Numbered from the stretch's first letter, positions 1 to 6,735 are shown. The stretch: DNA of 7,465 nt from a virus (IMGVR_UViG_2684622618_000004), one strand, 5' to 3'. A program made the numbers and translations. The notes: generated from the letters alone by a model not told the origin.

Positions 1-45
1 TTATTATCATTTTGCGGGTCCTTTCCGGCGATCCGACAGGTTACG
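1..45 (+). other. cos: Phage right-end sequence abutting cosN; by position this should include the cosQ region
   Basis: Positions 1-45 (ttattatcattttgcgggtcctttccggcgatccgacaggttacg) closely match the lambda right terminus as I recall it (...cggatccgacaggttacg immediately before the cohesive end). Exact cosQ limits not determinable here. Confidence 0.6.
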
Positions 46-57
46 GGGCGGCGACCT
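46..57 (+). other. cosN: cosN cohesive-end sequence (12-nt 5' overhang, lambda type)
   Basis: gggcggcgacct at 46-57 is identical to the lambda left cohesive end, followed by cgcgggttttcgctatttatgaaaattttccgg, which matches the start of the lambda genome. Confidence 0.85.
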
Positions 58-94
58 CGCGGGTTTTCGCTATTTATGAAAATTTTCCGGGATC

Positions 95-106
95 CATGTC
101 CGGTTT
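95..106 (-). repeat. cosB R3-like small-terminase binding repeat (inverted copy of AAACCGGACATG)
   Basis: catgtccggttt at 95-106 is the reverse complement of the 12-mer found in direct orientation at 182-193 and, with one mismatch, at 152-163. It lies ~50 nt after the cohesive end, where lambda R3 sits. Confidence 0.55.
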
Positions 107-151
107 CTCTTCAAGTTAACTATATGAAAAATATAAAAACAGGTCTTCTGT

Positions 152-163
152 GAACCGGACATG
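152..163 (+). repeat. cosB R2-like repeat (gAACCGGACATG)
   Basis: 11/12 match to the 182-193 12-mer; an AT-rich stretch (111-140) separates it from the inverted copy, resembling the lambda R3-I1-R2 layout. Confidence 0.55.
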
Positions 164-181
164 AACAAAAAACAGACATGT

Positions 182-193
182 AAACCGGACATG
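182..193 (+). repeat. cosB R1-like repeat (AAACCGGACATG)
   Basis: Third copy of the motif, ~50 nt upstream of the small-terminase start, matching the position of lambda R1 relative to Nu1. Confidence 0.55.
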
Positions 194-240
194 ACCGGTT
201 TTGTTGTGATTGTGAGGTGAGAGTTTTTGCGAGGTGAGGA

Positions 241-808
241 GTGGCTACGCAGACTGAAGTTGCCAGGCATTTAAGTCTGACCGATCGCCAGCTTCGCAGA
301 TTGCAGAAATTGCCGGGTGCCCCGATATCGAATAAGCGAGGGCAACTGGATCTGGATGCCTGGCGCGATTTTTACATATCGTATCTGAGGAGAAGTAAAA
401 ACGATGTGCCTGATGGCGATAGCGAAGACGACTATGAGGAGAAATTGCTTATTGCCAGATGGGAACTGACAGCAGAACAGGCTGTTACACAGCAGTTAAA
501 AAANNNNNNNNNNNNNNNNNNNNNNNNNNNNNNNNNNNNNNNNNNNNNNNNNNTTAAAAAATGAGGTGTCAAAAGGAAAACTGATTGACACCGGGTTCTG
601 TATTTTTGCCCTCAGTAAGCTGGCAATGGCGTTATCCAGTACGCTTGATTCCATCCCTTTATCCATGCAGCGACAGTTTCCTGATTTAACACCGCGCCAT
701 CTTGACCATCTGAAAACCCTTATTGCTAAGGGGGCAAATCAGTGTGCGCGGGCAGGGGATAAATTACCGGATTTACTTGATGAATATATCAGAGCAACAA
801 CTGAATAA
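241..808 (+). CDS. nu1: Terminase small subunit (Nu1-like), split by an assembly gap
   Basis: GTG start at 241 with GAGG 6 nt upstream. N-terminal part (MATQTEVARHLSLTDRQLRRLQKL...) looks like a helix-turn-helix DNA-binding segment. C-terminal part (DTGFCIFALSKLAMALSSTLDSIPLSMQRQFPDLTPRHLDHLK...LPDLLDEYI) aligns with the lambda Nu1 C-terminal region (ETAFCTFVLSRIAGEIASILDGLPLSVQRRFPELENRHVDFLK...IPGLLSEYI). The frame shifts across the 504-553 N run; stop TAA at 806-808. Confidence 0.85.
504..553. other. Assembly gap (50 N) inside the small terminase gene
   Basis: Exactly 50 N. The 8-mer ttaaaaaa occurs immediately on both sides (496-503 and 554-561). Confidence 0.95.
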
Positions 809-2753: not shown

Positions 2754-2943
2754 ACTGCAGGCGCTGCGTCAGGCGCGCCTTGATTTATTAACCGGTAAAC
2801 GGGTGGTGTCTGTCCAGAAAGATGGTCGCAGAATTGAATATACGGCGGCTTCTCTGGATGAGCTTAACCGGGCGATCAATGATGCGGAGTCGGTACTGGG
2901 GACAACCCGGCGTCGCCGTCGTCCGCTGGGAGTGAGGTTATGA
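2737..2943 (+). CDS. W: Head-tail joining / head completion protein (gpW-like), 68 aa
   Basis: MVTVAELQALRQARLDLLTGKRVVSVQKDGRRIEYTAASLDEL aligns with lambda gpW (..[35 protein letters not shown]), same 68-aa length. GGAGG precedes the ATG; overlaps the terminase stop by 17 nt. Confidence 0.9.
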   Translation: MVTVAELQALRQARLDLLTGKRVVSVQKDGRRIEYTAASLDELNRAINDAESVLGTTRRRRRPLGVRL

Positions 2944-4532
2944 AACGAACGCCTGTCCTGATTGATGTGAACGGCGTTCCGCTTCGTGAGAGTCTCAGCT
3001 ACAACGGGGGCGGTGCAGGATTTGGCGGGCAAATGGCGGAGTGGTTGCCACCGGCGCAGAGTGCCGATGCGGCCCTGCTGCCCGCGTTGCGTCTGGGGAA
3101 TGCCCGGGCAGATGATCTGGTGCGCAATAACGGAATAGCGGCCAATGCGGTGGCACTGCATAAGGATCACATTGTCGGGCATATGTTTCTTATCAGCTAC
3201 CGTCCGAACTGGCGCTGGCTGGGGATGCGGGAGACCGCAGCAAAAAGCTTTGTCGATGAGGTGGAGGCGGCCTGGTCGGAATACGCCGAAGGGATGTCTG
3301 GCGAGATCGACGTGGAAGGAAAACGCACGTTCACGGAATTTATCCGTGAAGGTGTGGGCGTTCATGCGTTTAACGGCGAAATCTTTGTGCAGCCGGTCTG
3401 GGATACGGAAACCACGCAGTTATTCCGTACGCGTTTTAAAGCCGTGAGTCCGAAACGGGTGGACACGCCAGGACACGGTATGGGGAACCGTTTTCTGCGG
3501 GCCGGGGTGGAGGTCGATCGATATGGCCGTGCCGTTGCGTACCATATCTGTGAGGATGATTTTCCTCGCTCCGGGAGTGGACGATGGGAACGGATCCCGC
3601 GTGAACTTCCCACCGGGCGTCCGGCCATGCTGCATATTTTCGAGCCGGTGGAGGACGGGCAGACCCGTGGGGCCAACCAGTTTTACAGCGTCATGGAACG
3701 GCTGAAGATGCTCGATTCCCTGCAGGCAACACAGCTTCAGTCGGCCATTGTGAAAGCCATGTATGCAGCGACGATTGAAAGTGACCTTGATACCGAAAAG
3801 GCCTTTGAATATATCGCCGGTGCGCCGCAGGGGCAGAAGGATAATCCGCTTATTAATATTCTGGAGAAGTTCTCCAGCTGGTATGACACGAATAACGTGA
3901 CGCTGGGTGGTGTCAAAATTCCGCACCTTTTCCCCGGGGATGATCTGAAACTACAGACTGCGCAGGATTCAGACAATGGATTTTCGGCGCTTGAACAGGC
4001 GCTGCTGCGGTATATCGCCGCCGGTCTTGGCGTTTCCTACGAACAGTTGTCCCGTGATTACTCGAAGGTCAGTTATTCAAGTGCCAGGGCCTCTGCCAAT
4101 GAGTCGTGGCGCTATTTTATGGGGCGGCGAAAATTTATTGCGGCCCGGCTGGCCACGCAGATGTTTTCCTACTGGCTGGAAGAGGCACTTCTTCGGGGGA
4201 TTATCCGTCCGCCACGGGCGCGTTTTGATTTTTATCAGGCGCGATCAGCCTGGTCACGGGCAGAGTGGATTGGTGCCGGAAGAATGGCCATTGACGGGCT
4301 CAAGGAGGTTCAGGAATCGGTGATGCGCATTGAGGCCGGACTGAGCACGTATGAGAAAGAGCCGGCGCTGATGGGCGAGGATTATCAGGACATTTTCCGC
4401 CAGCAGGTCAGGGAATCTGCAGAGCGGCAAAAAGCCGGACTCTCACGTCCGGTGTGGATAGCGCAGGCGTATCAGCAGCAGATAGCGGAGAGTCGCAGGC
4501 CGGAAGAGGAGACAACACCCCGTGAGACGTAA
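2940..4532 (+). CDS. B: Portal protein (gpB-like), 530 aa
   Basis: ATGA start/stop overlap with W at 2940-2943. Size (lambda gpB is ~533 aa) and position between W and C fit; I cannot align residue by residue from memory, so the call rests mainly on synteny and length. Confidence 0.85.
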   Translation: MKRTPVLIDVNGVPLRESLSYNGGGAGFGGQMAEWLPPAQSADAALLPALRLGNARADDLVRNNGIAANAVALHKDHIVGHMFLISYRPNWRWLGMRETAAKSFVDEVEAAWSEYAEGMSGEIDVEGKRTFTEFIREGVGVHAFNGEIFVQPVWDTETTQLFRTRFKAVSPKRVDTPGHGMGNRFLRAGVEVDRYGRAVAYHICEDDFPRSGSGRWERIPRELPTGRPAMLHIFEPVEDGQTRGANQFYSVMERLKMLDSLQATQLQSAIVKAMYAATIESDLDTEKAFEYIAGAPQGQKDNPLINILEKFSSWYDTNNVTLGGVKIPHLFPGDDLKLQTAQDSDNGFSALEQALLRYIAAGLGVSYEQLSRDYSKVSYSSARASANESWRYFMGRRKFIAARLATQMFSYWLEEALLRGIIRPPRARFDFYQARSAWSRAEWIGAGRMAIDGLKEVQESVMRIEAGLSTYEKEPALMGEDYQDIFRQQVRESAERQKAGLSRPVWIAQAYQQQIAESRRPEEETTPRET

Positions 4533-6027
4533 TCTTTCACACATTATTGCCGCAGCATTCAATGAACCGCTGCTTCTGGAGCCCGCCTATGCGCGGGTTT
4601 TCTTTTGCGCGCTCGGGCGCGAGATGGGGGCAGCAAGTCTTTCGGTACCACAGCAGCAGGTACAGCTTGATGCTCCCGGAATGCTGGCTGAAACGGACGA
4701 GTACATGGCCGGAGGTAAACGACCGGCCCGTGTTTACCGGGTGGTGAACGGTATTGCTGTACTGCCGGTGACCGGCACGCTGGTGCACCGGCTGGGGGGT
4801 ATGCGGCCATTTTCCGGAATGACAGGCTATGACGGCATTGTCGCCTGTCTTCAGCAGGCAATGGCGGATAGCCAGGTGCGGGGCGTACTGCTGGACATTG
4901 ACAGTCCGGGCGGGCAGGCCGCCGGCGCGTTTGACTGCGCTGACATGATTTACCGCCTCCGTCAGCAGAAGCCGGTCTGGGCACTGTGCAATGACACGGC
5001 CTGTTCTGCAGCCATGCTGCTGGCGTCGGCCTGCTCCCGACGGCTGGTTACCCAGACATCCCGTATCGGCTCCATTGGCGTGATGATGAGCCATGTCAGC
5101 TATGCCGGTCATCTGGCGCAGGCCGGTGTGGATATCACGCTGATTTACTCAGGGGCGCACAAGGTGGATGGCAATCAGTTTGAAGCCTTACCGGCAGAGG
5201 TTCGCCAGAACATGCAGCAGCGCATTGATGCGGCGCGCCGGATGTTTGCCGAAAAAGTGGCCATGTTTACCGGTCTGTCTGTTGATGCCGTCACGGGAAC
5301 AGAGGCCGCCGTTTTTGAAGGTCAGTCCGGCATTGATGCCGGGCTGGCGGATGAATTAGTCAATGCGTCGGATGCCATCAGTGTGATGGCCACGGCGCTG
5401 AACAGTAATGTCAGAGGAGGCACTATGCCGCAATTAACTGCAACGGAAGCCGCCGCGCAGGAGAACCAGCGAGTGATGGGGATCCTGACATGCCAGGAAG
5501 CGAAAGGACGTGAACAGCTTGCCACGATGCTGGCAGGACAACAGGGCATGAGCGTTGAACAGGCCCGGGCGATTCTGGCCGCGGCGGCACCGCAGCAGCC
5601 GGTGGCATCCACGCAGAGTGAAGCCGATCGCATTATGGCGTGTGAAGAAGCGAACGGTCGTGAACAACTGGCGGCAACGCTGGCGGCGATGCCGGAGATG
5701 ACGGTGGAAAAAGCCCGCCCGATCCTGGCTGCTTCACCGCAGGCGGATGCCGGACCCTCACTCCGTGATCAGATCATGGCACTGGATGAGGCAAAAGGGG
5801 CTGAGGCGCAGGCTGAACAGCTGGCTGCCTGCCCGGGAATGACTGTGGAGAGCGCCCGGGCTGTGCTGGCTGCGGGATCAGGTAAGGCAGAACCGGTCTC
5901 TGCATCCACAACCGCCCTGTTTGAACGCATCATGGCGAACCATTCACCGGCTGCGGTACAGGGTGGCGTGCCACAGACGTCAGCAGACGGTGATGCGGAC
6001 GTGAAAATGCTCATGGCCATGCCATGA
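4522..6027 (+). CDS. C: Head maturation protease / minor capsid protein (gpC-like, S49 ClpP/SppA-fold family) with a C-terminal scaffold region
   Basis: GTG start at 4522 (11-nt overlap with the portal stop). AFNEPLLLEPAYARVFFCAL, NGIAVLPVTGTLV, MTGYDGIVACLQQA, GAFDCADMI, KPVWALCND, SRRLVTQTSRIGSIGVMM, ITLIYSGAHKVDGN and GLADELVNASDAISVM all align with lambda gpC. The C-terminal third is repeat-rich. Confidence 0.9.
   Translation: MRRNLSHIIAAAFNEPLLLEPAYARVFFCALGREMGAASLSVPQQQVQLDAPGMLAETDEYMAGGKRPARVYRVVNGIAVLPVTGTLVHRLGGMRPFSGMTGYDGIVACLQQAMADSQVRGVLLDIDSPGGQAAGAFDCADMIYRLRQQKPVWALCNDTACSAAMLLASACSRRLVTQTSRIGSIGVMMSHVSYAGHLAQAGVDITLIYSGAHKVDGNQFEALPAEVRQNMQQRIDAARRMFAEKVAMFTGLSVDAVTGTEAAVFEGQSGIDAGLADELVNASDAISVMATALNSNVRGGTMPQLTATEAAAQENQRVMGILTCQEAKGREQLATMLAGQQGMSVEQARAILAAAAPQQPVASTQSEADRIMACEEANGREQLAATLAAMPEMTVEKARPILAASPQADAGPSLRDQIMALDEAKGAEAQAEQLAACPGMTVESARAVLAAGSGKAEPVSASTTALFERIMANHSPAAVQGGVPQTSADGDADVKMLMAMP
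5425..6027 (+). CDS. Nu3: Nested in-frame scaffold protein (Nu3-like), sharing frame and stop with C
   Basis: Internal ATG at 5425 in the C frame, preceded by AGGAGG (5415-5420). Product MPQLTATEAAAQENQRVMGILTCQEAKGREQ... is ~200 aa, matching the lambda arrangement in which Nu3 is translated from within the 3' part of C. Confidence 0.6.
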   Translation: MPQLTATEAAAQENQRVMGILTCQEAKGREQLATMLAGQQGMSVEQARAILAAAAPQQPVASTQSEADRIMACEEANGREQLAATLAAMPEMTVEKARPILAASPQADAGPSLRDQIMALDEAKGAEAQAEQLAACPGMTVESARAVLAAGSGKAEPVSASTTALFERIMANHSPAAVQGGVPQTSADGDADVKMLMAMP

Positions 6028-6063: not shown

Positions 6064-6411
6064 ATGGTAACGAAAAACATCACTGAACAGCGTGCGGAAG
6101 TACGTATTTTTGCCGGTAATGATCCGGCTCATACAGCCACAGGCAGCAGCGGGATTTCCTCGGCAACACCGGCACTGACGCCCCTGATGCTGGATGAAGC
6201 CAGCGGGAAACTGGTGGTCTGGGACGGACAGAAAGCCGGTAGTGCAGTTGGCATACTGGTACTGCCGCTTGAAGGCACAGAGACGGTACTGACCTATTAC
6301 AAGTCGGGGACCTTTGCGACGGAGGCAATCCGCTGGCCTGAAAGTGTGGATGAACACAAAAAGGCAAATGCCTTTGCCGGCAGTGCCCTGAGTCACGCGG
6401 CGCTGCCGTAA
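6064..6411 (+). CDS. D: Head decoration protein (gpD-like), 115 aa
   Basis: AGGAGG at 6049-6054, ATG at 6064. DPAHTATGSSG...TPLMLDEASGKLVVWDG...AVGILV...YYKSGTF...AFAGSA aligns with lambda gpD (DPAHTATAPGG...TPLMLDTSSRKLVAWDG...AVGILA...FYKSGTF...AFAGTA). Confidence 0.9.
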   Translation: MVTKNITEQRAEVRIFAGNDPAHTATGSSGISSATPALTPLMLDEASGKLVVWDGQKAGSAVGILVLPLEGTETVLTYYKSGTFATEAIRWPESVDEHKKANAFAGSALSHAALP

Positions 6412-6468: not shown

Positions 6469-6735
6469 ATGGGATTGTTTACGACCCGCCAGTTACTCGG
6501 TTATACCGAACAAAAAGTGAAATTTCGTGCGCTGTTTCTGGAGCTGTTTTTCCGCCGTACGGTGAATTTCCATACCGAAGAGGTGATGCTGGACAAAATT
6601 ACCGGAAAAACGCCGGTGGCGGCCTATGTCTCCCCGGTTGTTGAAGGAAAAGTGCTGCGTCATCGCGGTGGTGAAACCCGCGTGTTACGTCCGGGCTACG
6701 TCAAGCCGAAACACGAATTCCCCTGGAGCCGGTAA
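6469..6735 (+). pseudogene. E: Major capsid protein gene (gpE-like), 5' fragment only (88 codons)
   Basis: N-terminus MGLFTTRQLLGYTEQKVKFRALFLELFFR...[31 protein letters not shown] aligns with lambda gpE residues 1-~84 (MSMYTTAQLLAANEQKFKFDPLFLRLFFR...[31 protein letters not shown]). Similarity stops after KPKHE and the frame ends 5 codons later (TAA 6733-6735); lambda gpE is ~341 aa. Confidence 0.8.

Follow-up and report, generated by a model that had tools for sequence, protein, structure and literature searches.

The head operon and its protease/scaffold gene

The window, i.e., the whole stretch of 7,465 nucleotides that was analysed (virus IMGVR_UViG_2684622618_000004), is the left end of a lambda-like prophage with the gene order Nu1, A, W, portal, protease/scaffold, decoration and a remnant of the capsid gene. 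The features of the head operon are the following.

Upstream of the portal gene: terminase subunits, small and large, followed by W
2940-4532: portal gene, before the protease/scaffold gene
4522-6027, plus strand: head maturation protease with C-terminal scaffold part (GTG start, 501 aa; homologue of phage 21 gene 5 and lambda C)
4750-5400, plus strand: S49 (SppA-like) serine peptidase domain, aa 77-293, from Pfam and SppA structure matches
5414-5420, plus strand: Shine-Dalgarno sequence GAGGAGG of the nested scaffold gene, 4 nt before the ATG at 5425
5425-6027, plus strand: nested in-frame scaffold gene, 200 aa (phage 21 gene 6; lambda Nu3 analogue), ATG with a strong Shine-Dalgarno sequence
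6064-6411: decoration protein gene
6469-6735: remnant of the E-type capsid gene, first 88 codons

With the portal gene on one side and the decoration and capsid genes on the other, the protease/scaffold gene lies in a lambda-like head operon. The 501-aa open reading frame matches phrog_53 ('head maturation protease') end to end (E = 1e-227). The S49 domain is recognized by PF01343 at aa 146-293 (E = 2.8e-35, 122 bits versus a cut-off of 24.9) and by the B. subtilis SppA structures 3rst/4kwb, which align over aa 77-290 (E = 5e-16). Over all 1506 nt it aligns without gaps to phage 21 gene 5 (M81255.1, 4572-6077), with a nucleotide identity of 98.6%, and, judged by these matches, 4522-6027 is a scaffold-bearing lambda-type head protease gene of the phage 21 lineage. 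The window copy and phage 21 genes 5/6 share the GTG start, the internal ribosome binding site with its ATG, and the three repeats described below; they differ by a few amino-acid substitutions and in that the window copy resides in a defective E. coli O157:H7 prophage with a truncated capsid gene.

The nested gene 6 is an annotated coding sequence in both phage 21 records, M81255.1 and OL657228.1, and its ribosome binding site is annotated in M81255.1 (5464-5468, corresponding to window 5414-5418) as well as in OL657228.1. The internal in-frame start and ribosome binding site are present in both sequence and annotation, and translation from this start is predicted. A similar arrangement is found in lambda gpC/gpNu3 (NC_001416, 4418-5737 and 5132-5737), where an S49 protease also contains a nested in-frame scaffold gene, and gpC (439 aa) aligns with the window protein along the protease domain. 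The internal starts are placed differently: lambda Nu3 starts within the end of the protease domain (MDATRQMF...), whereas phage 21 gp6 (MPQLTA) starts after it.

The three-unit gene occurs in 1,864 of 5,426 complete E. coli genomes (coverage of at least 80%), with up to five matching places per genome, and is among the commonest E. coli prophage genes. Its database copies are mostly 'partial' proteins at contig ends (among P0001-P0091 and P0242-P0269); the gene is a frequent breakpoint of short-read assemblies, probably as a result of its multiple matching places (up to five) in the same genome.

Chromosomes of E. coli O157:H7 match the whole right part of the window at 100% identity and label the protease/scaffold gene 'S49 family peptidase'. 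Between window positions 6469 and 7457 only about 84 codons of the major capsid gene are left: the phage 21-like DNA stops at 6719, and from 6728 onwards there is lambda-V-like major tail protein DNA (83% to lambda 8978-9394). A deletion has removed the remainder of E, all of FI, FII, Z and U, and the beginning of V. The RefSeq label on the capsid gene is 'incomplete, missing C-terminus'. Consequently, an intact three-unit scaffold gene is retained in a prophage unable to make a capsid.

The window also contains two masked runs of 50 N (504-553 and 1049-1098). At the place of the second run E. coli O157:H7 TR01 has only 6 nt, and DNA similarity to phage 21 starts exactly at 1099, which indicates that the mask hides a mosaic joint or an indel within the large terminase gene; RefSeq calls this gene frameshifted in TR01. 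Positions 46-90 are 100% identical to phage lambda nt 1-45 (the cohesive-end region), and the downstream head genes are of the phage 21 type. In TR01 a small terminase gene without its N-terminus is closely preceded by an ISEc8 (IS66 family) element, and the TR01 stretch compared contains nothing that matches window 1-553.

Repeat units and the C-terminal tail

The repeats fall in the scaffold part that is common to the protease and the nested Nu3-like protein. The sequence-only reading, made before this analysis, had claimed three full units and a partial fourth one, spaced by about 47-53 residues. The peptides are found where it had placed them (R317 at nt 5470, R370 at 5629, Q417 at 5770 and R469 at 5926), the spacings being 53, 47 and 52 residues. 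We delimit the elements as follows.

5464-5586, plus strand: unit 1, aa 315-355 (HMM domain, 75 bits; carries an extra R-V-M-G insertion typical of first units)
5623-5739, plus strand: unit 2, aa 368-406 (HMM domain, 83 bits)
5764-5880, plus strand: unit 3, aa 415-453 (HMM domain, 78 bits; EAKGAE replaces EAKGRE)
5914-6024, plus strand: conserved C-terminal tail, aa 465-501 (F-E-R-I-M-x3-S-P-A-A-V ... D-A-D-V-K-x-L-M-x-x-P)

The units, or modules, are about 40 residues long, are joined by short, fast-evolving linkers rich in Pro/Gln/Ala/Ser, and are followed by the tail. Their consensus is D-x-I-[ML]-A-x-x-E-A-K-G-R-E-x-L-A-x-x-L-A-x-x-P-G-M-T-x-E-x-A-x-x-[IL]-L-A-A-x-P, in which E-A-K-G-R-E forms a near-invariant charged motif. 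Statistical significance of the similarity between units was assessed by BLOSUM62 local alignment with 2000 residue shuffles for each pair. Units 1 and 2 align with a score of 101 (shuffled null 26 ± 5, z = 15), units 1 and 3 with 87 (z = 11) and units 2 and 3 with 97 (z = 13.6), and for no pair did any of the 2000 shuffles score as high as the real sequences (null 26-27 ± 5). With an HMM built from the three units, exactly three domains are recognized in the window protein and a single one in lambda gpC (aa 364-399). The repeat of three full units, with z = 11-15 and three HMM domains, is thus real and statistically solid.

The partial fourth unit fared differently. Its peptide, RIMA, is present at 5926, but its similarity to the units is that of a shuffled sequence (z from -0.1 to -0.9). 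The segment starting with RIMA (5926-5940) is positionally homologous to the tail after the single lambda unit (DRLMQGAP...), and a tail follows the last unit in every aligned relative, including single-unit ones such as lambda. Since the segment has no statistical support as a repeat and is common to single-unit relatives, it is, on alignment grounds, better viewed as an ancestral helix of the tail than as a truncated unit. The earlier statement that lambda C/Nu3 has one unit plus a short partial agrees with what we find in gpC: one full unit, RIMGILNCEEAHGREEQARVLAETPGMTVKTARRILAAAP, then a short tail beginning DRLM, i.e., the R-L-M start. Apart from having one unit rather than three, lambda gpC differs from the window protein in that about 36 residues are inserted ahead of the unit.

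The triplicated repeat as such is already known, having been annotated for phage 21 in the early 1990s. In M81255.1 (Bacteriophage 21 head gene operon), gene 6 contains three repeat_region features, namely Tri1 box (5542-5645), Tri box (5682-5792) and Tri3 box (5823-5936), each with the note 'function unknown; putative'. Given the 50-nt offset between the two sequences, these boxes correspond to window 5492-5595, 5632-5742 and 5773-5886 and lie over the three HMM units. The paper on the phage 21 head genes is reportedly that of Smith and Feiss from 1993. What is new here is a module that has no Pfam or NCBIfam model, its occurrence in ~1,100 clusters, the three-helix prediction and the range of copy numbers from 1 to 4. 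The practical value is small, given that the repeat has been in GenBank since the deposit of the phage 21 head operon and that the gene is very common.

That the units are diverged at the nucleotide level, as had been noted from the sequence, holds: DNA identity in the core is 58-66%, the same codon is used in only 6-8 of 18-20 conserved residues, and synonymous positions are scrambled. Tandem Repeats Finder reports 0 rows for the DNA at a minimum score of 30, and an exact-seed DNA repeat search returns nothing past chance fragments of 12-22 nt, so the repeat is visible at the protein level only. A recent DNA-level tandem array, with copies at least about 70% identical, was considered and rejected in view of the core identity and the empty Tandem Repeats Finder output.

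The same data bear on the idea that the repeats act at the level of DNA or RNA, as protein-binding 'boxes', internal starts or CII-dependent antisense promoters. 'Boxes' is the word that GenBank itself uses for the repeats, every unit has an in-frame ATG, and the scaffold region has two minus-strand matches (5430-5443 and 5664-5677) to TTGYN6TTGY, the pattern of annotated CII binding sites in OL657228.1. Conservation at the protein rather than the DNA level speaks against such a role, and so do the details of each signal. None of the unit ATGs is preceded by a Shine-Dalgarno sequence, the Met of units 2 and 3 freely alternates with Leu in homologues, and two CII patterns compare with 1.27 expected from shuffles; these matches are most likely due to chance. 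We consider a DNA- or RNA-level role very improbable. Nested scaffold isoforms starting within the units, which had been flagged as speculative, likewise find no support, the only Shine-Dalgarno sequence being the one before the ATG at 5425.

Age of the triplication, selection and copy number

The Gifsy-1 prophage of Salmonella (STM2605) and related prophage S49 peptidases contain three orthologous units in the same order and have the same operon layout; they differ from the window protein in linker lengths, in a diverged tail and in an identity of about 53% in the scaffold part. The units of the window are 83%, 77% and 63% identical to the same-position units of the Salmonella prophage protein, compared with 49-56% to their own paralogues, which implies that the triplication predates the split from Salmonella Gifsy-1-type prophages. 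Both this position-by-position orthology and the presence of the three-unit gene in finished phage 21 and E. coli genomes bear out the earlier proposal of an old duplication as opposed to an assembly collapse.

Relative to Gifsy-1, units 1, 2 and 3 have dN values of 0.17, 0.16 and 0.34. The protease domain stands at 0.24 and the tail at 0.72; the linkers, at 0.44-1.4, have acquired indels as well, and dS is saturated. The low values for the units next to diverging linkers indicate that all three copies are maintained by selection at the protein level; all three units are under purifying selection and have been since before the split of the E. coli and Salmonella prophages.

In order to determine how widespread the unit is, a 43-position profile built from 23 units was searched against 1.84 billion cluster representatives, and it matches 1,094 clusters at E <= 1e-3. 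Among the best 150 of these 1,094 clusters, one unit is found in 137, two in 10 and three in 3. Multi-unit proteins are ranked at the top since the scores of their units add up, and a single unit is therefore clearly the norm; the refuting case named in the sequence-only reading, in which lambda and most relatives would have as many units as the window protein, does not apply. The single unit is located 39-60 residues from the C-terminus. It is carried either by S49 proteases with a length of about 420-550 aa or by stand-alone proteins of 110-230 aa, the latter presumably being separately called scaffold genes.

Near phage 21 the copy number is labile, ranging from 1 to 4. Two-unit forms (P0016, P0020 and P0021) occur in assemblies; they look like inter-unit recombinants or deletions, and defective prophages may be their source. 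Four units are present in the E. coli protein P0027, for which the phage collection contains no counterpart and whose DNA was taken from an E. coli draft contig; the P0027 units are 81-86% identical to each other in protein and 72-75% in DNA. Within each of P0027, P0139 and P0106, the units resemble their own paralogues more than they resemble units of other proteins, which indicates independent expansions; the context of P0106, an 897-nt contig, is uninformative. Multi-unit forms are also found outside enterobacteria, as in the two-unit Bradyrhizobium protein P0208.

Such lability is what one would expect if the extra copies had no specific binding role and were tolerated as spacer or filler in a flexible scaffold, generated by unequal crossing-over. 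Copy number varies from 1 to 4 even among close relatives, forms with two units and with four exist, and the lambda head, which has T=7 geometry, assembles with one unit. A neutral spacer is nevertheless difficult to reconcile with purifying selection acting on all units while the linkers diverge and take indels; units 1 and 2 evolve more slowly than the protease domain, although unit 3 does not. In P0027 the units are more similar in protein than in DNA, which also argues against mere filler. We regard this explanation as improbable, although less so than a role of the repeats in DNA or RNA.

The context of P0150 is uninformative as well, the protein being a tape-measure/protease fusion of rearranged lambda-like type. 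In a Logan contig of SRR9640626 (L007, 1601-4135) an 844-aa open reading frame joins a TMP_2 tape-measure N-terminal domain to an S49 protease/scaffold; the contig is lambda-like with the rearranged gene order V, G, T, fusion, D, E..., and the fusion stems either from a lambda derivative that was rearranged or engineered, or from misassembly.

Predicted fold and possible role in head assembly

For one unit with the 23-sequence alignment, AlphaFold predicts three helices with pLDDT 86 and pTM 0.62. In the model of the 200-aa scaffold the same three helices recur in each unit at pLDDT 70-75, with values below 50 for the linkers and for most of the tail; the pTM of this model, 0.23, suggests units without a fixed mutual arrangement. 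The helices predicted for unit 1 span aa 307-322, 331-338 and 345-354; in the tail one helix is predicted at aa 461-473, the remainder being of low confidence. The module is accordingly predicted to be a small three-helix bundle. Tandem three-helix-bundle domains occur in staphylococcal protein A, which is a structural analogue only.

A Foldseek search against the PDB gives no significant match, and neither Pfam nor NCBIfam, scanned with the scaffold part as well as with single units, has a family model that covers the module; several PHROG profiles match the module region in multiple stretches. Two candidates from the domain and profile searches were rejected. The helix-hairpin-helix family PF00633 reaches at best 18.5 bits, with unit 3 only, compared with a cut-off of 24, and does not match units 1 and 2; moreover, the loop P-G-M-T lacks the second Gly of the G-h-G hairpin. 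A PDB profile search returns chance matches only, including the nine residues AKGREALAE in 9hqv chain Un, which was dismissed since the papers citing 9HQV all deal with the apicomplexan (Toxoplasma) mitoribosome.

We propose that the module is a scaffold bead that binds the capsid or the scaffold, and that its three copies provide multivalency. This is the best explanation for the phage 21 lineage, and we assign it a probability of roughly 0.6. The gene would give rise to two products, the 501-aa protease (gp5, the gpC analogue) and, from the ATG at 5425, the 200-aa scaffold (gp6, the Nu3 analogue). Their shared C-terminal region would resemble beads on a string, with three independently folding three-helix modules, linkers and the tail. 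The module is the conserved core of the family, normally single, and its old triplication in the phage 21 / Gifsy-1 lineage would have arisen by unequal recombination. The modules would hold the scaffold and, via the shared C-terminus, also the protease to the inner face of the shell (gp7/E) and/or to other scaffold molecules, and having three of them would make this attachment multivalent. Once assembly is complete, the scaffold would be digested by the S49 protease, for which the exposed linkers would be the easiest targets.

Several observations in related systems are relevant to this proposal. Phage P22 gp8, a functional analogue, has a small helical module with conserved basic residues near the scaffold C-terminus, and this helix-turn-helix binds the N-arm of the capsid protein; for phi29, a proposed fit likewise has a small scaffold helix-turn-helix on the capsid protein N-arm (PMC11922011). 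P22 gp8 differs in having no detectable sequence or fold match to the module and only one copy, and P22 has no protease. Lambda Nu3 interacts with E, C and itself in two-hybrid tests and is needed for incorporation of the portal, and the lambda scaffold is degraded by the protease and absent from mature heads (PMC3224144, the latter in its C-Nu3 entry). The helices of the P22 and phi29 scaffolds, together with the Nu3-E contacts of lambda, lend indirect support to the module as a binding bead.

Other observations fit the proposal less well. Lambda gpNu3 was reportedly found to be largely intrinsically disordered (Medina et al. 2011), and this sits uneasily with a folded module. The existence of two-unit deletion variants suggests that three copies may be dispensable. 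Finally, the capsid-binding element could be the conserved tail rather than the module.

The last of these possibilities belongs to the main rival explanation, according to which the modules serve as scaffold-scaffold or scaffold-portal association domains that form the core and the initiator complex, and contact with the major capsid protein is left to the tail. Herpesvirus scaffolds bind the capsid through their extreme C-terminus, and in both herpesvirus and HK97-type systems it is the extreme C-terminus that targets the scaffold or protease to the shell. Conservation of the tail pattern across all relatives, always after the last unit, points in the same direction, and self-association of lambda Nu3 and its requirement in portal incorporation (PMC3224144) agree with the association role of the modules. 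On the other hand, the tail evolves much faster than the units (dN of 0.72 versus 0.16-0.34 against Gifsy-1), and the near-invariant charged E-A-K-G-R-E is located in the unit and not in the tail. We consider this explanation unlikely, although it is the most serious competitor of a capsid- or scaffold-binding bead.

A broader version of the binding-bead proposal can be put forward only tentatively, as possible but doubtful: the EAKGRE...PGMT...LAAAP module could be the capsid-recognition domain of all lambda-type (S49 protease-linked) scaffolds, with copy number tuning the valency between scaffold and shell. If this were true, the variation from 1 to 4 copies, with independent expansions in enterobacterial, Bradyrhizobium and other lineages, would adjust the number of shell contacts. 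To our knowledge the contact between scaffold and capsid has never been seen structurally in the lambda system. The module is the most conserved part of the lambda-type scaffold, yet it is described by no domain database, and the natural variants with one, two, three and four units constitute a ready series for investigating scaffold valency in procapsid assembly.
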